IMG/VR virus record: IMGVR_UViG_2548876946_000011
Span: 1-5,118 of that record
Strand: one strand, 5' to 3'
DNA from: a virus
Taxonomy: Duplodnaviria; Heunggongvirae; Uroviricota; Caudoviricetes
Length of the DNA stretch: 5,118 nucleotides
Part shown: in pieces, positions 1 through 5,118 of the stretch
Position numbering within the stretch: position 1 is the stretch's first letter
How the letters are laid out: each line of letters begins with the position of its first letter
Position numbers and translations under genes: made by a program
The notes under the pieces: model-generated
What the model was told of the DNA's origin: nothing
What the model saw: only the letters and a program-made list of their open reading frames with translations
Databases searched by the model: none

Positions 1-128
1 AGAGCGTTTTTGTCGCTCGCAGCTGAATCCAGCCAGAATCCAAACTCAATATCCAGCGCATCAAAAAGCCAAAGCGGCGTTTGCCAGCAGTCCTTGTCGT
101 GTGCTGGCGTATTTGATTTGATAGTCAT
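1..128 (-). CDS. Partial CDS (first 42 codons; gene continues beyond the window start). nin-region protein whose N-terminus resembles phage Dam-type N6-adenine DNA methyltransferases
   Basis: Minus-strand ATG at 128..126 overlaps the ninB stop in an ATGA arrangement (plus 125-128 = tcat). Reverse-complement translation of 128..1 is MTIKSNTPAHDKDCWQTPLWLFDALDIEFGFWLDSAASDKNAL with no stop before the window edge. The D-x-W-x-TP...LF..L...FGF..D.AAS pattern is recalled from phage Dam-like methyltransferases; this is not a computed match. Not in the ORF track because it is truncated. Confidence 0.55.
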   Translation of the reverse strand, partial: MTIKSNTPAHDKDCWQTPLWLFDALDIEFGFWLDSAASDKNA

Positions 129-565
129 GCAGCCCGATCTCCCCATCGCGCTTTCCACTCCAGAGCCAGTCGCGCTTCGTCTGACCACTTAACGCCATGC
201 TCTGTACCAAATGCCTGTATAAGCTCTAATAGCTCCGCAAATTCGCTTACACGCATCCTGCTGGTTGACTGGCCTATTACCACAAAGCCATTCCCGGCAA
301 GGTTAGGAACAACGTCTTGCTGCTTTAATGCTGCGGTAAACACACACTTCCAGCTTTCTGCATCCAGCCAGCGACCATGCCATTCAACCTGACGAGAGAC
401 GTCACCTAAGCAGGCCCATAGCTTCCTGTTTTGGTCTAAGCTGCGGTTGCGTTCCTGAATGGTTACTACGATTGGTTTGGTTGGGTCTGGAAGGATTTGC
501 TGTACTGCGTGAATAGCGTTTTGCTGATGTGCTGGAGATCGAATTTCAAAGGTCAGTTTTTTCAT
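125..565 (-). CDS. ninB: NinB (Orf-family recombination mediator), 146 aa
   Basis: ORF-track protein from MKKLTFEIRSPAHQQNAIHAVQQILPDPTKPIVVTIQERNRSLDQNRKLWACLGD... matches lambda NinB as I remember it. Start chosen at ATG 565..563 (MKKLTF), preceded on the minus strand by GGGGGAGAGGGAAGTC as Shine-Dalgarno. The track's longer start at 583 (MGEREV) overlaps the upstream terminator T-tract and has no SD. Stop TGA at 127..125. Confidence 0.95.
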   Translation of the reverse strand: MKKLTFEIRSPAHQQNAIHAVQQILPDPTKPIVVTIQERNRSLDQNRKLWACLGDVSRQVEWHGRWLDAESWKCVFTAALKQQDVVPNLAGNGFVVIGQSTSRMRVSEFAELLELIQAFGTEHGVKWSDEARLALEWKARWGDRAA

Positions 566-580
566 GACTTCCCTCTCCCC

Positions 581-613
581 CAAATAAAAAGGCCTGCGAT
601 TACCAGCAGGCCT
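581..613 (-). terminator. Rho-independent terminator (lambda tR2-like) between the helicase gene and ninB
   Basis: On the minus strand, 8-bp GC-rich stem AGGCCTGC (613..606) pairs with GCAGGCCT (597..590) around an 8-nt loop, followed by TTTTTATTTG (589..580), 25 nt after the helicase stop. The ninB RBS follows immediately. Confidence 0.8.
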
Positions 614-638
614 GTTATTAGCTCAGTGATGTAGATGG

Positions 639-2015
639 TCATACGTCAGCCCCTTGTGCATATCGTCTGCCACGTGCAGCGGGTGCATTTGATGCTGTGC
701 AAATCTGTCTGGCTTCATCCTGGTCACATGCAACAAAGTGTCCGTTACAGAACCGCTGGTAAACCGTACCAAGCGAGCCAAAACGGTTTTTCGTCACGAT
801 GATTTCAGCAAATGGCGCGGCGCTACTGTTCTCGTCATATACCGCTTCCCGATAGAGCATGATGATTGAGTCTGCGTCCTGCTCAATGCTTCCTGAATCA
901 CGCAAATCTGCGTTTGTCGGGCGTTTGTTTGGTCGCTTCTCAACATCGCGCGAAAGCTGACTCAGGGAGATAACTGGCGTTTTCAGGTCTTTCGCCATCG
1001 CCTTAAGGCTTCCTGAGATGTGAGCAATTGCGAGGTCGTTGCGGTCTGCTTTCGGCTTCTCAATCAGGCCAAGATAATCCGCCATGATGAGTGAGAGGTT
1101 TGGATTTTCCTGTTTGTGCCGCTCTGCGATTGAGCGAATTTCTTCTACCGATAACCGCGAGGCATCGACTACCCATACATCCAAATCTGCAAGCTGACTC
1201 ATGCCGTTAGCAACACGCGCCCAGCCTTCGTCATCCATCGATGCAGGATTTCGCAGTACGCTAACCGACATCCTCCCGGCGTTGGCAATGCTTCGCTCTG
1301 CAATCTGCAATGCGCTCATTTCCATCGAGAAAATCAACACTCCGCGCCGGACGTCAGAACCAGGAATAACGCGGCTTGCCACGCCTTCGGCAATCTTCAG
1401 CGCCAGTTCGGTTTTCCCCATACCAGGACGAGCGGCGATTATCACCAGATCTTCCGCGTTCATCCCTCCGGTGATGGCATCAAGTTCTTCGATTCCGGTC
1501 TTCAGGGTATCGGACTCTTCTCCGTTCCTCAGACGCCTGTCAAGCGTGTCAGTGTAGTCAGTAATGATTTCCCCTAACCGTACAGGTTTTACCTCGTCAC
1601 GGGGCTTTCTGATGGCTGAAAGACGCTTTACAAGTTCATCCATCGCCTGACTCGATGCGTCGATGGTTCCGCTCTGAATTGGTTCACGCATTTCATCCAT
1701 GATTTCCAGCACCAGACGGCGGTGATAGTTATCCGCGACCATTCCGGCATATCCCTTCAGGTTTGCGGCACTCGGGCAGTTTTTGCTGGTCATCAGGATT
1801 GACGTGAAATGCTCCTCTCCGCACGCCTCGGCAACCATCAGCGCGTCGATTAGGTTTCTGTTTCGCGCCTGCTTGCGGATAACCTCGAAGGCTTTCCGGT
1901 AGAGCGGAATTGAAAACGCTTCCGGCTCCAGCGTTGCCAGAACGTCGCTGGCGGTTGGTGTTAATCCACCAATCAGCAAGCCACCGATAACGCTCGCTTC
2001 GATATCCTGTCTCAT
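639..2015 (-). CDS. Replicative DNA helicase, DnaB family (phage P22 gene 12-like), 458 aa
   Basis: Full-length ORF with Walker A motif [16 protein letters not shown], a RecA-like core ([31 protein letters not shown]) and a DnaB-like N-terminal region. Minus-strand RBS AGGGGGA upstream of ATG 2015..2013. The start overlaps the stop of the upstream O-like gene (ATGA), suggesting translational coupling. Confidence 0.95.
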
Positions 2016-2842
2016 GCAATCCCCCTGTCTGCAAACTTCCCTTCCCGTACTCCAGTTAACGAATCTTCCCTCAGCAGGTAATCAAAATCAGCTGTCCAGC
2101 CCGTGTCGTTGTCTCCGAAGTAAAACGGCTTGGCCTGATGCACAAACGCCCTGACATACGCTCTGAAACCGTCCACGTTTGGCGTTTTCAGTTGCGGGAT
2201 GATTTTCTTCAGGCGGCGTTTGCGTTTCTCGTTGACCGCAACAGCGTGTGGCAGTCTGTCACCGACTTCGGTGTTGTAGGCGTTCAGGAAGGATTCATAG
2301 TCGATTCGTTCTGCCTTGCGACGTTCAGGTTTAACCTGCCCATCGCCGCCCCCGTTAGGGGGTAAGGGGGTATTTGTATTTATTGTCTTTTGTATATTGT
2401 CTTTTGTGTTTGACTGATTCGGTAAATTGCTTTTTACCGATTTGGTGAAGGTTTGTTTTACCGAATTGGTAAATGTTTTACCGAATCCGTTAACTTTCGT
2501 TTTCCACTCGGAAATGTTTGTATTCATACCAACTTGACGCCCCACCTGAATGAGAACTCCCATTCTGATAAGCTCGTTTTTGGCGGTAGAGCATTTGGTT
2601 GGTGCCATGCCAGTGAGTTCAGCGAACTGTTCGTTTCCGATCCAATCTATTTTTTTGTTGTAACCGTATGTCTTGCGCCACACAGCCATAACAATCAGTA
2701 ACTGATGTAGAGTAAGTCCAGAAAGCATGGCGGCTTCTAACAGTGTGTTTGCAGTCCGAGTGTAGCCATCTTCGAGTTCTGCCACGCGATGCTCCACGAC
2801 CTCCAGTTGAGGCCTGTAATCAGCTAACTTAACGACGCCCAT
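2012..2842 (-). CDS. O: Replication initiation protein, lambda O / P22 gene 18-like, 276 aa
   Basis: N-terminal region ...[59 protein letters not shown]...[11 protein letters not shown]...NISEW resembles the lambda O N-terminal iteron-binding domain (remembered LDDGYARLSNMLLEAY...ILRKTYGWNK...ISEW). The gene contains the iteron/AT-rich origin. Strong RBS AGGAGTG upstream of ATG 2842..2840. A Pro/Gly linker ([10 protein letters not shown]) precedes the C-terminal domain, which is expected to recruit the helicase. Confidence 0.9.
2371..2493. other. Candidate phage origin of replication (ori-lambda-like): four iterons plus an adjacent ~40-bp AT-rich region inside the O-like gene
   Basis: Iterons at 2409..2493 are followed, in the direction of O transcription, by the AT-rich segment 2371..2408 (tatttgtatttattgtcttttgtatattgtcttttgtg). 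This is the same order and scale as the lambda origin inside O. Assignment is by architecture only. Confidence 0.75.
2409..2493. repeat. Iteron array, 4 copies of an ~18-bp partially palindromic repeat (consensus about TTTTACCGAATTGGTAAA)
   Basis: Copies at 2409..2426 (tttgactgattcggtaaa), 2432..2449 (ttttaccgatttggtgaa), 2456..2473 (ttttaccgaattggtaaa) and 2476..2493 (ttttaccgaatccgttaa), spaced 23, 24 and 20 bp. Each has TTACC/GGTAA dyad arms. They encode a repeated peptide in the O-like protein ([16 protein letters not shown]). Confidence 0.75.
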
Positions 2843-2990
2843 GTTTCACTCCTGCTTTGGCTAGTCTGTAAACACCAACAAGGCGCTCTGCGAACGCCCT
2901 GTTATTTGCTGCGGCTACCACTAATCCCTCAGGTGAATCAGGGTGTCGAATCTCTTCTTTTTCCTGGTATTTCTTACGACGTTTTGTCAT
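2829..2990 (-). CDS. Hypothetical small basic protein, 53 aa, between cII and the O-like gene
   Basis: Not in the ORF track (below its length cutoff). Minus-strand ATG at 2990..2988 is preceded by AGGAGT with 5-nt spacing. My translation is [53 protein letters not shown], with stop TAA at 2831..2829 overlapping the first codons of the O-like gene. No homology is claimed. Confidence 0.4.
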   Translation of the reverse strand: MTKRRKKYQEKEEIRHPDSPEGLVVAAANNRAFAERLVGVYRLAKAGVKHGRR

Positions 2991-2999
2991 AATTACTCC

Positions 3000-3079
3000 T
3001 GTGGATTGATCCAGTAATTCCCTCAGAATTGCATATCAATTTGCTTAAAATCCTCGGTGGCGGCCGGGGATTTTTTCTT
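3000..3079 (+). ncRNA. Candidate OOP-like antisense RNA (about 80 nt), antisense to the 3' end of cII
   Basis: Plus-strand extended -10 motif TGtCATAAT (2985..2993) gives a predicted start near 3000. A strong intrinsic terminator at 3046..3079 lies inside the cII 3' coding region on the opposite strand. Position and size mirror lambda OOP RNA. Inference only. Confidence 0.35.
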
Positions 3080-3319
3080 TGTGATTTCATCAAGCGCATA
3101 CTTAAAAGCCCTGCTAATCGGACTGATGTCTGATGCCATTCCGAAAGCACACAAGACCGAAGCAATAAATCTCCAGTCCGTTCTGCTTATCTTCGATTCA
3201 TGACAGCCAATCATCTTTGCCAGACCGCGCTGGGTAAGCGTTGACAGGTTGATGAGTAAATCTGTTTCTGCGCGATCAATTTCTCGCTGTGTTGGCTTGC
3301 TGTAACTTGCTTGTGTCAT
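3023..3319 (-). CDS. cII: CII-type transcriptional activator (lysogeny establishment), 98 aa
   Basis: ORF-track protein ends ...DEITKKKSPAATEDFKQIDMQF, resembling the lambda CII C-terminus (...NKKRPAATERSEQIQMEF as recalled), with a central HTH-like segment (LAKMIGCHESKISR). It sits between cro and O as in lambdoid phages. A TTGC-N6-TTGC motif lies antisense within its 5' end. Confidence 0.88.
   Translation of the reverse strand: MTQASYSKPTQREIDRAETDLLINLSTLTQRGLAKMIGCHESKISRTDWRFIASVLCAFGMASDISPISRAFKYALDEITKKKSPAATEDFKQIDMQF
3046..3079 (+). terminator. Rho-independent terminator on the plus strand inside the cII 3' end (candidate OOP terminator)
   Basis: Stem 3049..3056 (atcctcgg) pairs with 3063..3070 (ccggggat): 8 bp including one G-U. 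Loop is tggcgg, followed by TTTTTTCTTT (3070..3079). A-T extensions on both flanks (3046..3048 / 3071..3073) could allow some bidirectional function. Confidence 0.65.
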
Positions 3320-3329
3320 TTCTTAATAT
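3297..3329 (+). promoter_or_regulatory. Candidate pRE-like CII-activated promoter (TTGC-N6-TTGC plus -10)
   Basis: TTGC (3297..3300), spacer tgtaac, TTGC (3307..3310), then 13 nt and TAATAT (3324..3329). It lies antisense in the first codons of cII and points toward cro (antisense) and cI. The geometry matches lambda pRE as I recall it. Confidence 0.6.
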
Positions 3330-3404
3330 TTCCAATAGTGAATAGTTAGTTGAAAGGTATGCGTGGAAACGCATATGGCCTTAGTTGGTCAGATATATTG
3401 GGAC

Positions 3405-3450
3405 TCGCTTTTCAGCGACGTAGGACGAATGTCCGTTGTTACAAAGAGCG
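3405..3450 (-). promoter_or_regulatory. Candidate nutR (boxA plus boxB-like hairpin) just downstream of cro
   Basis: Minus-strand boxA CGCTCTTT (plus 3450..3443) begins 12 nt after the cro stop. Then gtaacaac, a small hairpin GGACattcGTCC, tacg, and the boxB-like hairpin TCGCtgaaaaGCGA (plus 3418..3405). The same boxA-aacaac-hairpin-tacg-boxB layout recurs at the candidate nutL. Confidence 0.55.
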
Positions 3451-3460
3451 GACCCGCTTA

Positions 3461-3676
3461 TTAAGCAGCTTTGTGTTCCGGCGGGAACACGTCATCAAGA
3501 CTGACTTTTGCGCCTAACTTGTTTAGGCACTCAACAAGAGCACGGCATGTTTTAAGGTCTGGGAAGCGACGACCAGATTCCCAATGTCCGATAGCTCCCT
3601 GTGTGCATCCAACTGCCTTAGCAAGTGTTGTTTGAGAGATATTCAGTGACTCTCGATATTTTCGTAGGTTGCTCAT
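3461..3676 (-). CDS. cro: Cro-type HTH repressor, 71 aa
   Basis: Small HTH protein MSNLRKYRESLNISQTTLAKAVGCTQGAIGHWESGRRFPDLKTCRALVECLNKLG... divergent from cI, with a recognition helix very similar to that of the cI here (TQGAIGHW vs TQGGIGHW). Start at ATG 3676..3674 has an upstream GGAGGG. The track's longer start at 3703 lacks an SD and lies upstream of the predicted pR start. Confidence 0.85.
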   Translation of the reverse strand: MSNLRKYRESLNISQTTLAKAVGCTQGAIGHWESGRRFPDLKTCRALVECLNKLGAKVSLDDVFPPEHKAA

Positions 3677-3702
3677 ATGCCCTCCATAGTAACCATAACA
3701 CA

Positions 3703-3731
3703 ATAATACGATATGTACTTTTAGAATGCAA
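3703..3731 (-). promoter_or_regulatory. Candidate pR promoter driving cro
   Basis: Minus strand: -35 TTGCAT (plus 3731..3726), 17-nt spacer, -10 TATTAT (plus 3708..3703). The spacer (tctaaaagtacatatcg) is nearly identical to the pL spacer (cagtaaagtacacatcg). Confidence 0.65.
3705..3719. promoter_or_regulatory. Candidate operator (OR1-like) overlapping the pR spacer and -10
   Basis: Minus-strand sequence AGTACatatcGTATT, half-site pattern AGTAC-N5-GTAyT. Same motif and same position relative to the promoter as the pL site at 4586..4600. Confidence 0.5.
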
Positions 3732-3764
3732 ACAAAAAATACATCTTGTGCATGGATGATTTTA

Positions 3765-3779
3765 GTACAGAGCGTAATA
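3765..3779. promoter_or_regulatory. Candidate operator (OR3-like) next to the cI start, overlapping a possible pRM -10
   Basis: Plus strand AGTACagagcGTAAT fits AGTAC-N5-GTAnT. A weaker possible middle site AATACatcttGTGCA lies at 3738..3752. A possible pRM -10 TAATAA at 3775..3780 would put the start near ATG 3788. Confidence 0.4.
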
Positions 3780-3787
3780 ATAAGGGT

Positions 3788-4447
3788 ATGAAAATGAAAT
3801 GGTATGAACTGGCTAGATCCAGAATGAAAGAGCTAGGCATAACTCAAGAGAAGTTAGCTGAAGAGCTTGGTATGACGCAGGGTGGAATTGGTCACTGGTT
3901 GCGCGGATCTCGTCATCCATCTCTTGACGAGATTGGTGTGGTGTTTAAATACCTTGGTATTGATAACGTCTCATTCAACCACGACGGTACATTTTCACCT
4001 GTTGGCGAATACTCATCTGCCCCCGTTAAAAAACAATATGAGTACCCTGTTTTTTCTCATGTTCAGGCCGGGATGTTCTCGCCTGAGCTTAGAACCTTTA
4101 CCAAAGGTGATGCGGAGAGATGGGTCAGCACAACCAAAAAAGCCAGTGATTGTGCGTTTTGGCTTGAAGTTGAAGGTAATTCCATGACCGCGCCAACAGG
4201 ATCCAAGCCAAGCTTTCCTGACGGGATGTTAATTCTCGTTGACCCTGAGCAGGCTGTTGAGCCAGGTGATTTCTGCATAGCCAGACTTGGTGGTGACGAG
4301 TTTACCTTCAAGAAACTGATCAGGGATAGCGGTCAGGTGTTCCTACAACCACTAAATCCGCAATATCCAATGATTCCATGCAATGATAGCTGTTCCGTAG
4401 TAGGGAAAGTTATCGCCAGCCAGTGGCCTGAAGAGACATTTAGTTAA
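3788..4447 (+). CDS. cI: CI-type prophage repressor (HTH N-domain plus LexA/S24-like autocleavage C-domain)
   Basis: C-terminal portion [52 protein letters not shown]...[15 protein letters not shown] is almost identical to the lambda cI C-terminal domain as I remember it, including the Ser (GNSMTAP) and Lys (FKKLI) catalytic context. The N-terminal HTH ([23 protein letters not shown]) is unlike lambda. Start is uncertain: the longest ORF begins at 3746, but 3788 (MKMKW) or 3794 keeps the candidate operators in the intergenic region. AAGGG lies 7 nt before the 3794 ATG. Confidence 0.93.
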
Positions 4448-4477
4448 CAGCCTCACCACTCTAAAACACACAACAAT

Positions 4478-4507
4478 AACCCGACCTTAGCGTCGGGTTT
4501 TCTTTTT
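4478..4507 (+). terminator. Rho-independent terminator immediately downstream of cI
   Basis: Stem aacccgac (4478..4485) pairs with gtcgggtt (4492..4499), 6-nt loop cttagc, T-tract ttttcttttt (4498..4507). It begins 31 nt after the cI stop. Confidence 0.8.
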
Positions 4508-4573
4508 CCAAAATATAAATCAATAAAATACAAAGTGTTATAAAAAACTAAACCATATTTAGAACATTTTGTA

Positions 4574-4602
4574 TTGACTCAGTAAAGTACACATCGTACT
4601 AT
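4574..4602 (+). promoter_or_regulatory. Candidate pL promoter with embedded operator (OL1-like, 4586..4600)
   Basis: -35 TTGACT (4574..4579), 17-nt spacer, -10 TACTAT (4597..4602). A near-perfect inverted repeat AGTACacatcGTACT (4586..4600) spans the spacer and -10. A weaker site AGAACattttGTATT (4561..4575) is centred 25 bp upstream and overlaps the -35. Confidence 0.7.
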
Positions 4603-4647
4603 TTAGCCATCAGCAGGAAGCTGGAAGCCAAACGGAACAGACTGGCA

Positions 4648-4694
4648 TGCTCTTTAAACAACGTCGAGCACTCGACTACGTGGCTGAAAAGCCA
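4648..4694 (+). promoter_or_regulatory. Candidate nutL (boxA plus boxB-like hairpin) in the pL leader
   Basis: boxA-like TGCTCTTTAA (4648..4657), then acaac, hairpin GTCGAgcacTCGAC (4663..4676), tacg, and boxB-like TGGCtgaaaaGCCA (4681..4694). Architecture parallels the candidate nutR. Confidence 0.55.
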
Positions 4695-4792
4695 GATCAC
4701 CCAACCACATGAGCTGTGGGATGCAATGCCGAAGCAACCGTCTCAGGAAGAGCTTCGAGATTGCATCACCAAAGTTTATTCGGGAGGAATCT

Positions 4793-5065
4793 ATGTCCAG
4801 AAAAACAGAATTTAAAGGCACCTCAGCTTCTCGTCGTAGAGCTCGTCGCGCAAACCTGCAAAGTCAGGAGGCGATTAGCTCCGACAAGCTACACAGACCA
4901 ACCCCCTCACGAGTGGTCTTGCAATGTAAGCGCAAACCAGCAATGAGAGCAGAAGTAATAACACTGACAACGCTGACCAGAAAATATGAAGGCTCAACTT
5001 GTCTTCCAAACGTAGCTCTTTACGCGGCAGGCTACCGGAAATCCAAACAACTGACAGCAAGATGA
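4793..5065 (+). CDS. N: N-type transcription antitermination protein, 90 aa
   Basis: N-terminal arginine-rich motif MSRKTEFKGTSASRRRARRANLQSQEA is typical of lambdoid N proteins (remembered lambda MDAQTRRRERRAEKQAQW). The gene lies downstream of the pL-like promoter and nutL-like site. Start at ATG 4793 has SD GGGAGGA 5 nt upstream. The track's upstream start at 4709 has no SD. Confidence 0.8.
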   Translation: MSRKTEFKGTSASRRRARRANLQSQEAISSDKLHRPTPSRVVLQCKRKPAMRAEVITLTTLTRKYEGSTCLPNVALYAAGYRKSKQLTAR

Positions 5066-5118
5066 CTTGTGTTGGTCGCCAGAAAATGAAATTAGGCAGC
5101 AAACCACTTATTTGAGGT

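Follow-up and report, generated by a model that had tools for sequence, protein, structure and literature searches.

A 5,118-nt stretch of caudoviral DNA (positions 1 to 5,118 of IMG/VR record IMGVR_UViG_2548876946_000011; hereafter the window) very probably carries, at 3461-4621, a lambdoid immunity module of the VT2-Sakai type ('cI2c/cro4'). The module is complete, running from cro on the minus strand through a three-part OR, cI on the plus strand and a terminator to the three OL sites at pL, and it is already known as the immunity region of VT2-Sakai and many relatives, annotated since 1999. The original prediction took the AGTAC-N5-GTACT sites at pR and pL, together with the matching recognition helices of cI and Cro, to suggest an uncharacterised immunity specificity. 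These features are parts of the annotated VT2-Sakai region, and the window therefore carries an ordinary example of a switch that had already been described. A close match to a characterised immunity region, which the prediction had itself named as grounds for abandoning it, is largely what the comparison with VT2-Sakai and Stx1-phi reveals. The accompanying claim of a coherent module outside the classic lambdoid types stands insofar as the module is coherent and is neither imm-lambda nor H-19B, but the type had already been described as that of VT2-Sakai.

The cI N-terminal domain is 96-100% identical to those of VT2-Sakai/Sp5, Stx1-phi, Stx2-phi-II (Morioka V526), Nil2, 2851, 1717 and the PA-series Stx2a phages, and its helix-turn-helix (HTH) is identical to that of this group, to which YYZ-2008 also belongs. 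Against a threshold of at least 90% identity to VT2-Sakai-type phages in both proteins, the window gives 96% for the cI N-terminal domain and 70 of 71 residues for Cro; the Cro figure is that for Stx1-phi, whose full-length cI is 97% identical. A position matrix trained on the window's own six operator sites yields six matches in AP000422 (VT2-Sakai) and in AP005153 (Stx1-phi) that coincide with the coordinates of their six annotated putative operators, although scores in such close homologues are not independent evidence, because of this training. The annotations of both records also include pR, pRM and pL, and the window's six sites agree with the published VT2-SA operator list (PMC10742460, Table S1).

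The proteins of this type were named cI2c and cro4 by Smith et al. (2012; PMC3430580), who noted that the C-terminus is identical to that of lambda, and the six VT2-Sa operators were listed and synthesised by Sedhom and Solomon (2023; PMC10742460, Table S1). As cited in the latter paper, Fattah et al. (2000) compared the VT2-Sa immunity region with that of lambda and described cross-immunity, which might be explained by heterodimers formed through the identical C-terminal domains. Gel shifts on VT2-Sakai-type operators have employed lambda cI only, which bound weakly (apparent Kd 3.7-6.4 uM), and the searchable literature yielded no assay of the cognate repressor, whether by footprinting, gel shift or reporter. 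Binding of repressor and Cro to the window's operators, and the superinfection immunity that it would confer, are putative activities, with indirect support from the conservation of the operators and from the operator mutations of phiKp_30.

Within the type, the window's sub-variant matches Dewey, Louie, 720R6, 683R2 and phi458, none of them Stx phages, at 96-98%, and it is the one that non-Stx P22-like phages also carry. Its six operators are homologous to those of the VT2-Sakai group, with the same spacing and promoter geometry and a lambda-like C-terminal domain in both, whereas the OR intergenic DNA is only ~83% identical to that of the Stx phages, the changes falling in spacers and central operator bases. 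Moreover, OL directly follows cI in the window, whereas ~1.5 kb of extra genes lie between them in the Stx phages. In Dewey, a P22-like podovirus, the segment 3461-4621 is found at 98% identity but N, cII and the replication genes are different, and in this comparison the immunity module moves as a unit. The exact cI sequence of the window is present on 616 contigs, and the module occurs in about 14% (~1/7) of complete E. coli genomes. Searches of NCBIfam and PHROGs returned generic families only, and members of the sequence cluster bear generic names as well.

Genes, promoters and repressor proteins

Full-length ORFs in the window correspond to ninB, P, O, cII, cro, cI and N, the last of which (4793-5065; Pfam N_peptide, 1e-31) is of the H-19B type. 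The divergent cI and cro genes are separated by a 117-bp gap containing three operator sites, the first of which is overlapped by pR, and a second operator cluster (OL3-OL1, 4526-4601) lies over pL, upstream of nutL and N, toward which this promoter is directed (Table 1). The pR hexamers given in the table were read by eye from the sequence, the consensus scan itself giving TTTGCA-18-TATTAT, and this promoter is the counterpart of the 'putative major rightward promoter' annotated in AP000422 and AP005153. The putative pRM was not detected in a consensus scan of the window, as would be expected of an activator-dependent promoter; its placement follows the annotated homologues, and its transcript is predicted to begin at or near the ATG at 3788. 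The terminator that follows cI has a counterpart in VT2-Sakai, where a rho-independent terminator of pRM transcription is annotated between cI and OL.

Table 1. Features of the immunity region, with coordinates in the window
Feature	Position	Strand	Description	Basis or counterpart
cro	3461..3676	-	71 aa, HTH_3-type Cro	ORF; Pfam HTH_3 1.4e-12
Cro residues 24-35	3572..3607	-	CTQGAIGHWESG, turn and recognition helix	Alignment; aligns with P22 c2 helix 3
pR	3703..3731	-	-35 TTGCAT (3731-3726), 17 bp, -10 TATTAT (3708-3703)	Scan and direct reading
OR1	3704..3720		TAATACGATATGTACTT, over pR spacer and -10	Homologous to putative operator in VT2-Sakai and Stx1-phi
OR2	3737..3753		AAATACATCTTGTGCAT, upstream of pR -35, abuts putative pRM -35	Annotated putative operator in homologues
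Putative pRM	3752..3780	+	Weak -35 ~3752-3757, -10 TAATAA 3775-3780	Position from 'maintenance promoter for cI', AP000422/AP005153
OR3	3763..3779		TAGTACAGAGCGTAATA, over putative pRM -10	Annotated putative operator in homologues
cI	3794..4447	+	Repressor, 217 aa (alternative start ATG 3788)	Pfam HTH_3 N-terminal and Peptidase_S24 C-terminal
cI residues 27-38	3872..3907	+	Turn and recognition helix (QGGIGHWLR)	Aligns with lambda cI 42-53, helix 3
cI residues 82-217	4037..4447	+	Linker and C-terminal domain	~98% identical to lambda cI (BLASTP)
Intrinsic terminator	4478..4509	+	After cI; 8-bp stem, then T run	Sequence scan
OL3	4526..4542		AAATACAAAGTGTTATA	Position matrix, alignment
OL2	4560..4576		TAGAACATTTTGTATTG, overlaps first bases of pL -35	
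pL	4574..4602	+	TTGACT (4574-4579), 17 bp, TACTAT (4597-4602)	Consensus scan; 'major leftward promoter' in VT2-Sakai
OL1	4585..4601		AAGTACACATCGTACTA, over pL spacer and -10	

The window cI combines an HTH domain (HTH_3, 8e-11) with a LexA-like, self-cleaving S24 domain (Peptidase_S24, 9e-29) that retains the Ala-Gly, Ser and Lys expected of such repressors, its QAGMF cleavage region, EGNSM serine and FKKL lysine being identical to those of lambda cI. The N-terminal domain of cI and Cro are paralogous (35% identity, E=3e-13), and alignment confirms that the recognition helices of the two proteins are nearly identical, with the cores TQGGIGHW in cI and TQGAIGHW in Cro. The assertion that these helices are unlike those of lambda, 434 or P22 was too strong with regard to lambda, whose helix 3 (QSGVGALFNG) aligns with and partly resembles that of the window cI. 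Among PDB entries, the cI N-terminal domain has no close structure (best E ~1e-4 to 5e-3, lambda repressor among them), and the window Cro has a match at 2e-16 to 28tn, an unnamed 'lambda repressor-like protein' of 82 aa, its similarity to the N-terminal domain of P22 c2 being only marginal (E ~0.006).

Six conserved operator sites

The 15-bp dyad on which the original prediction was built is present exactly at 4586-4600 (AGTACACATCGTACT) and with one mismatch on the minus strand of 3705-3719 (AGTACATATCGTATT). A third match next to the cI start (AGTACAGAGCGTAAT) is likewise present, at 3764-3778, one base away from the 3765-3779 that had been given for it. The placement of the dyad at pR and pL is also as had been claimed, the 15-mer in both cases extending over 11 bases at the end of the spacer and 4 at the start of the -10 hexamer. 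The analysis extends these AGTAC-N5-GTACT sites to six, arranged as two triplets in the window and in the 40-kb Dewey genome. The six 17-bp operators have the half-site consensus wA[G/A]TACa, corresponding to the full dyad wA[G/A]TACa-N3-tGTA[C/T]Tw, in which A5 and C6 are invariant in 12/12 half-sites.

In the window, enrichment of the 15-mer alone is modest, with 5 matches at <=2 mismatches against 1.09 expected (3/200 shuffles reach 5), and one of the five, at 492-506 inside ninB, is probably due to chance; for the TAC-N5-GTA core, 3 occurrences compare with an expected 0.46 (P=0.013). In the complete Dewey genome, the six best matrix matches (15.2-19.7 bits) are the two triplets flanking cI, and the next best scores 12.2. 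Variable columns account for 8/72 of the operator cores but 58/148 of the remaining control region in a comparison of 8 phages (Fisher p=1e-5), and site spacing is kept in 9 phages (OR 32-33 and 26 bp; OL 33-34 and 25 bp) despite unrelated genes between cI and OL that amount to anything from 0 to 1.6 kb. In phiKp_30, a natural derivative that lacks cI, OR2 and OR3 carry point changes at invariant half-site positions. An inverted-repeat search of OR at seed 6 reported none because the dyad arms are only 5-7 bp, and the position matrix was therefore needed. Neither a fourth OR site nor a closer OR2, ~24 bp from OR1 as in lambda or in the four-site OR of H-19B, was detected above background.

Proposed mechanism and competing explanations

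From this arrangement we infer a scheme of operator binding, site-occupancy order, pRM activation and cooperativity. Dimers of cI would bind the six 17-bp dyads through the HTH_3 N-terminal domain and its helix QGGIGHWLR, and repressor bound at OR1 and OL1, which lie over the spacer and -10 of pR and pL, would block RNA polymerase. The centre of OR2 lies at approximately -43 relative to the cI start, abutting the weak pRM -35, where lambda cI sits when it activates pRM, and OR3, over the pRM -10, would shut off cI synthesis when repressor is high. Cro, bearing almost the same helix, would read the same sites and turn the switch toward lytic growth, whereas induction would proceed by RecA-stimulated self-cleavage, given a linker and C-terminal domain that are essentially those of lambda cI. 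Pairwise cooperativity of the lambda kind is not assured, since OR1 and OR2 are 33 bp apart rather than the 24 bp of lambda. The lambda-identical C-terminal domain may nevertheless work with an OR1-OR2 distance of 33-34 bp, which exceeds 24 bp by about one helical turn, in which case the geometry of cooperativity would differ from that of the textbook switch.

The original reading, a new immunity specificity with no described counterpart, is highly improbable. It could draw on the PDB result for the N-terminal domain (best match only E ~1e-4), on the generic names given to the repressor in databases ('LexA family', 'helix-turn-helix') and on the lack of cognate-repressor biochemistry in the searchable literature. 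Set against these are the 96-100% identity of the N-terminal domain to that of VT2-Sakai, Stx1-phi, Stx2-phi-II, Nil2, 2851 and 1717, the annotation of operators and promoters in AP000422 and AP005153, the existing cI2c/cro4 name, the published and synthesised operators, the immunity tests that Fattah et al. (2000; per PMC10742460) are reported to have run, and a kinship with phage L, VT2-Sa and Nil2 that Villafane et al. (2008) had pointed out. There is still less reason to regard the dyads as by-products of AT-rich promoter DNA with its -10-like TACT and TATT, a reading we consider scarcely credible despite the modest 15-mer enrichment in the window, the short arms and the empty seed-6 search. 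Such by-products would not account for two triplets of fixed spacing with two invariant half-site positions, for selectively conserved cores or for the lack of comparable matches elsewhere in the 40 kb of Dewey; in addition, OR2 and OL3 overlap no promoter hexamer, and the motif recurs in phage ST64T, whose OR does not align with that of the window in DNA.

An unlikely though more serious alternative accepts the operators as genuine and places this copy in a defective or cryptic prophage, in which case the switch would no longer control a viable phage. The window is chromosomal, matching E. coli Z1322HEC0003 at 100%, defective prophages are common in E. coli, and the VT2-Sa copy of cI carries a truncating mutation (Smith et al., 2012; PMC3430580). 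In the window, however, ninB, P, O, cII, cro, cI and N are all full-length, the six operators and both promoters are intact, and free-living phages (Dewey, Louie, 720R6, 683R2 and phi458) possess a module that is 98% identical.

As a copy of the VT2-Sakai-type switch, the window adds nothing new to the existing picture. The type itself controls induction of VT2-Sakai (Sp5) and of many O157:H7 Stx2a and Stx1 phages, and it therefore bears on the amount of Shiga toxin made. For specialists, the points of interest are that a common and medically relevant switch is one for which cognate-repressor biochemistry was not found, and that it probably has a recognition code in common with phage L.

Relation to other immunity systems

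The window and lambda have a common switch architecture, with OR2 and OR3 placed as in lambda relative to pRM. The N-terminal domain is, however, only ~30% identical to that of lambda and lacks the N-terminal arm, lambda Cro is unrelated in sequence to the window Cro, and the lambda operators (TATCACCGC) are unrelated to those of the window, which contains no lambda-type operators; conversely, the matrix finds no match at lambda OR or OL. An assignment to imm-lambda was rejected on these grounds. In both 434 and P22, similar helices in Cro and in the N-terminal domain of the repressor read one set of operators. P22 c2 matches the window only weakly, and the 434 operator consensus, ACAA-N6-TTGT, differs from that of the window.

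The repressors of H-19B, 933W and BAA2326 are biochemically characterised cI-type repressors of Stx-associated lambdoid phages and fall in the same functional class as that of the window. Identity with H-19B, suspected because the window N is of the H-19B type, was rejected, its cI and cro being ~22% identical and effectively unrelated (operators characterised by Shi and Friedman, 2001). BAA2326 was likewise set aside, its published operators being different sequences (e.g., ATAACTGTGCGTAATG), as was 933W, which the classification of Smith et al. (2012; PMC3430580) separates as a different cI variant.

A closer parallel is provided by the Salmonella phages L and ST64T, whose immC region (cII/c2 repressor and Cro) is genetically defined as heteroimmune to P22. 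The recognition helices of the L repressor (KTQGAIGHWLNG) and L Cro (CTQGAIGHYESG) are nearly identical to those of the window, the ST64T cores being TQGAIGHW and TQGAIGHY, and the L/ST64T operators (e.g., TAATACATTTCGTACTA and AAGTACATTTTGTATTG) fit the window consensus. With the window-trained matrix, the ST64T sites score 18.8, 12.3 and 15.3 in OR and 10.7, 17.9 and 17.9 in OL. Their arrangement also corresponds, with spacings of 34/26 bp in OR and 30/25 bp in OL of ST64T against 33/26 bp in the window OR, and with 9 nt between the end of OR3 and the repressor ATG in both. This agreement in motif, helix and spacing exists even though the OR of ST64T and phage L does not align with that of the window at the DNA level. 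On the other hand, the N-terminal domains are only 44-54% identical, below the ~90% protein identity offered by Villafane et al. (2008) as a rule of thumb for same specificity, the C-terminal domain of L/ST64T is not that of lambda, and the hosts differ. The window is accordingly not assigned to 'imm L'.

Because helix, operator consensus and site spacing are the same, the L/ST64T and window systems may share DNA specificity, and a recognition code common to the window type and phage L is probable from these alignments. The broader proposal, that the VT2-Sakai-type and L/ST64T repressor-Cro pairs all use one code in which TQG[GA]IGH[WY] reads wA[G/A]TACa, is more tentative, and we would give it slightly less than an even chance. 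If true, the two 'immunity types' would cross-react across genera; a cross-immunity test between phage L and the window type was not found in the literature. A more distant relative is the epsilon34/g341c repressor, to whose N-terminal domain those of L, VT2-Sa and Nil2 are closest, at ~50% identity (Villafane et al., 2008). Its proposed operator (WTACRAWWTGTAT) has the TAC-N5-GTA core in common with the window and its C-terminal domain is lambda-like, whereas its helix (TKGAVSHW) and outer operator bases differ, and only one of its sites passes the window matrix.

Operators and promoters of the module

The window comprises the early regulatory and replication region (5118 bp) of a lambdoid prophage of E. 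coli and has a 100% match in the chromosome of E. coli strain Z1322HEC0003. The finding described here extends from the -10 element of pR to that of pL. The original prediction had placed copies of a 15-bp dyad in this interval. The copy at pL, AGTACACATCGTACT, is an exact match at 4586-4600, and the minus-strand copy at 3705-3719, AGTACATATCGTATT, is likewise present; the third, AGTACAGAGCGTAAT, also exists, although its position had been given one base off and is 3764-3778. As had been proposed, the dyad lies over spacer and -10 element at both pL and pR; in each it takes up the final 11 bp of the spacer plus four bases at the beginning of the -10.

By itself, the 15-mer shows only modest enrichment in the window, with five matches at ≤2 mismatches against 1.09 expected (equalled in 3 of 200 shuffles), and the TAC-N5-GTA core occurs three times against 0.46 expected (P=0.013). 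The twelve half-sites of the six predicted operators yield the consensus wA[G/A]TACa, in which A5 and C6 are invariant. A matrix built from these six window sites was used to scan phage Dewey (complete genome, 40 kb), which shares the module and is a P22-like podovirus obtained from sewage in Switzerland: two triplets on either side of cI scored 15.2-19.7 bits and all other positions ≤12.2 bits. Among eight phages carrying the module, operator core columns are variable at 8 of 72 positions, compared with 58 of 148 other non-coding control-region columns (Fisher p=1e-5), and the substitutions are located in the central three operator bases and in the spacers.

Features of the window and their coordinates
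Feature	Position	Strand	Remarks
ninB	125-583	-	
DnaB-type replicative helicase	639-2015	-	
O-type initiator	2012-2842	-	
53-aa ORF	2829-2990	-	
cII	3023-3319	-	
cro	3461-3676	-	
pR	3731-3703	-	TTGCAT-17-TATTAT; promoter scan and direct reading
OR1	3704-3720		17 bp
OR2	3737-3753		17 bp
OR3	3763-3779		17 bp
cI	3794-4447	+	
cI terminator	4478-4509		OL directly after
OL3	4526-4542		17 bp
OL2	4560-4576		17 bp
pL	4574-4602	+	TTGACT-17-TACTAT; promoter scan and direct reading
OL1	4585-4601		17 bp
N	4793-5065	+	

Repressor bound at OR1 and OL1 would most likely occlude pR and pL. OR2 has its center ~43 bp before the cI start and touches the weak, putative -35 element of pRM, which is where pRM is activated in lambda. 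OR3 covers the putative pRM -10, and because the first ATG (3788) follows that element by ~8 nt, pRM may, like its lambda counterpart, produce a leaderless transcript. Many database entries begin cI at an upstream TTG (231 aa; window 3746-3793), but this codon resides inside OR2/OR3, upstream of the putative pRM -10, and is therefore probably a gene-caller artefact; a start at ATG 3788 or 3794 fits the promoter.

Operator spacing is a real departure from lambda. Center-to-center distances are 33 bp (OR1-OR2), 26 bp (OR2-OR3), 25 bp (OL1-OL2) and 34 bp (OL2-OL3). The longer of these distances are greater than the shorter by 7-9 bp, or about one turn of the helix. The asymmetry is kept in all relatives including the Salmonella phage ST64T (33-34, 26 and 25 bp for OR1-OR2, OR2-OR3 and OL1-OL2).

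Outside the operators, nutL (4649-4693, +) and nutR (3406-3450, -) each have three parts: a boxA-like GCTCTTT[A/G][A/T]AACAAC, an additional short hairpin (GTCGAGCACTCGAC or GGACATTCGTCC), and a boxB with a GAAAA loop whose stems, GGCT/AGCC and CGCT/AGCG, differ by compensatory changes. This structure fits the H-19B-type N of the window.

The cI and Cro proteins

Matching recognition helices are found, as originally described, at cI residues 27-38 and Cro residues 24-35 (CTQGAIGHWESG). Cro and the N-terminal domain of cI are paralogues (35% identity, E=3e-13). In phage 434, Cro and repressor also have a recognition helix in common, and the shared helix is thus expected rather than surprising. 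The closest solved structure to Cro is PDB 28tn (82-aa chain, E=2.4e-16, helix TAGAICHYENG), deposited only as 'lambda repressor-like protein'.

From residue 82 to its end, cI is ~98% identical to lambda cI, a stretch that includes the cleavage region (QAGMF) and the motifs of the catalytic Ser and Lys. This near-identity strongly suggests that the protein would undergo RecA-stimulated self-cleavage and form lambda-type dimer and tetramer contacts. In contrast, the N-terminal domain is only ~30% identical to that of lambda cI and lacks the N-terminal arm, although helix 3 can still be aligned (QSGVGALFN in lambda, QGGIGHWLR here), and lambda Cro is unrelated to the window Cro. OR1-OR2 spacing is 33-34 bp; in lambda, with which the C-terminal domain is shared, natural operators are spaced by 23-24 bp.

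An immunity region of VT2-Sakai-type phages

The module had been proposed to represent an uncharacterised immunity specificity. This reading is partly supported: the module is coherent and distinct from those of lambda, 434 and P22, but comparison of the cI N-terminal domain and Cro with databases returned close matches in annotated VT2-Sakai-type phages. Across 63 phage records the 75 N-terminal residues of cI show 96-100% identity; among these records are Stx2-phi-II, 1717, Stx2a_WGPS and F349, the PA series, phi458 and 683R2, and the same region is found at the DNA level in Nil2, 2851, VT2-Sakai (Sp5) and YYZ-2008. The Stx1-converting phage from O157:H7 Morioka V526 encodes a cI with 97% identity to that of the window and a Cro matching at 70 of 71 residues. 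The VT2-Sakai entry (AP000422) annotates pR, pRM, pL, three OR and three OL 'putative operators', nutL, nutR, tR1 and pRE, and that of the Morioka phage (AP005153) is much alike; matrix matches in both loci coincide exactly with the annotated operators. The proteins have been named cI2c and cro4, and identity to lambda cI in the C-terminal half of the repressor was pointed out (Smith et al., 2012; PMC3430580). The six VT2-SA operators, including OR1 AAGTACATATTGTATTT and OL1 TAGTACGATATGTACTT, have been listed and gel-shifted with lambda cI, which bound weakly (apparent Kd 3.7-6.4 uM; Sedhom and Solomon, 2023; PMC10742460). The latter paper also cites a comparison of this immunity region with that of lambda by Fattah et al. 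(2000), in which cross-immunity was reported. Given these annotations, names and operators, the module is already described; no footprint with the cognate repressor was found in the searchable literature.

Three other identities were rejected: H-19B immunity (cI and cro unrelated), BAA2326 immunity (operators differ) and imm-lambda (no lambda-type operators in the window).

The module is common: of 5426 complete E. coli genomes, 768 carry ≥80% of its 1.16 kb; identical cI occurs in 616 contigs and identical Cro in at least 1000. Dewey matches the window at 98% over 3461-4621 and differs in N, cII and replication genes. The limits of this match define the exchangeable unit, bounded by the cro stop codon and a point slightly beyond the pL start, which is the classical 'imm' segment. 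Stx phages carry 0.9-1.6 kb of unrelated genes between cI and OL, whereas OL directly follows the cI terminator in the window; despite this difference, operator spacing is unchanged in the phages compared.

Beyond N, a 17-codon ORF (5062-5115, +; MTCVGRQKMKLGSKPLI*), whose ATGA start overlaps the N stop codon, resembles the lambda N C-terminus (GITCSGRQKIKGKSIPLI*), and H-19B has the same DNA after N (~2186-2243, -). The ORF looks like a fossil lambda-type N 3′ end at a mosaic junction behind an H-19B/HK97-type N.

The P22-like sewage phage phiKp_30 of Klebsiella (LC768498, 917-1177) has the same cro and OR, but a 6-bp deletion affects the beginning of its cI, of which nothing remains beyond ~60 nt; OL2 lacks its left half; and an invariant half-site position bears a point change in both OR2 (TGTGCAT to TTTGCAT) and OR3 (CGTAATA to CGCAATA). 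The phage appears to be a virulent derivative that arose naturally without cI, and it lends weak genetic support to the operator assignment.

Comparison with phage L and ST64T

Salmonella phage L, to which ST64T is 99.9% identical (PMC8022706), has an immC region that genetics defines as heteroimmune to P22. A grouping of the L, VT2-Sa, Nil2 and epsilon34 N-terminal domains has been published, and WTACRAWWTGTAT was proposed as the epsilon34 operator (Villafane et al., 2008; PMC2629481). A statement of a recognition code shared by VT2-Sa and phage L was not found in the searchable literature. The L/ST64T N-terminal domain is only 44-54% identical to that of the window, and at the DNA level no alignment is obtained between the ST64T and window OR. 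The ST64T sites nonetheless fit the window matrix (OR 18.8, 12.3 and 15.3; OL 10.7, 17.9 and 17.9), with spacings of 34/26 and 30/25 bp, and, just as in the window, 9 nt separate the end of OR3 from the repressor ATG; the helices are KTQGAIGHWLNG in the repressor and CTQGAIGHYESG in Cro. A modest reading of these comparisons is that the VT2-Sa type and phage L probably employ a common recognition code.
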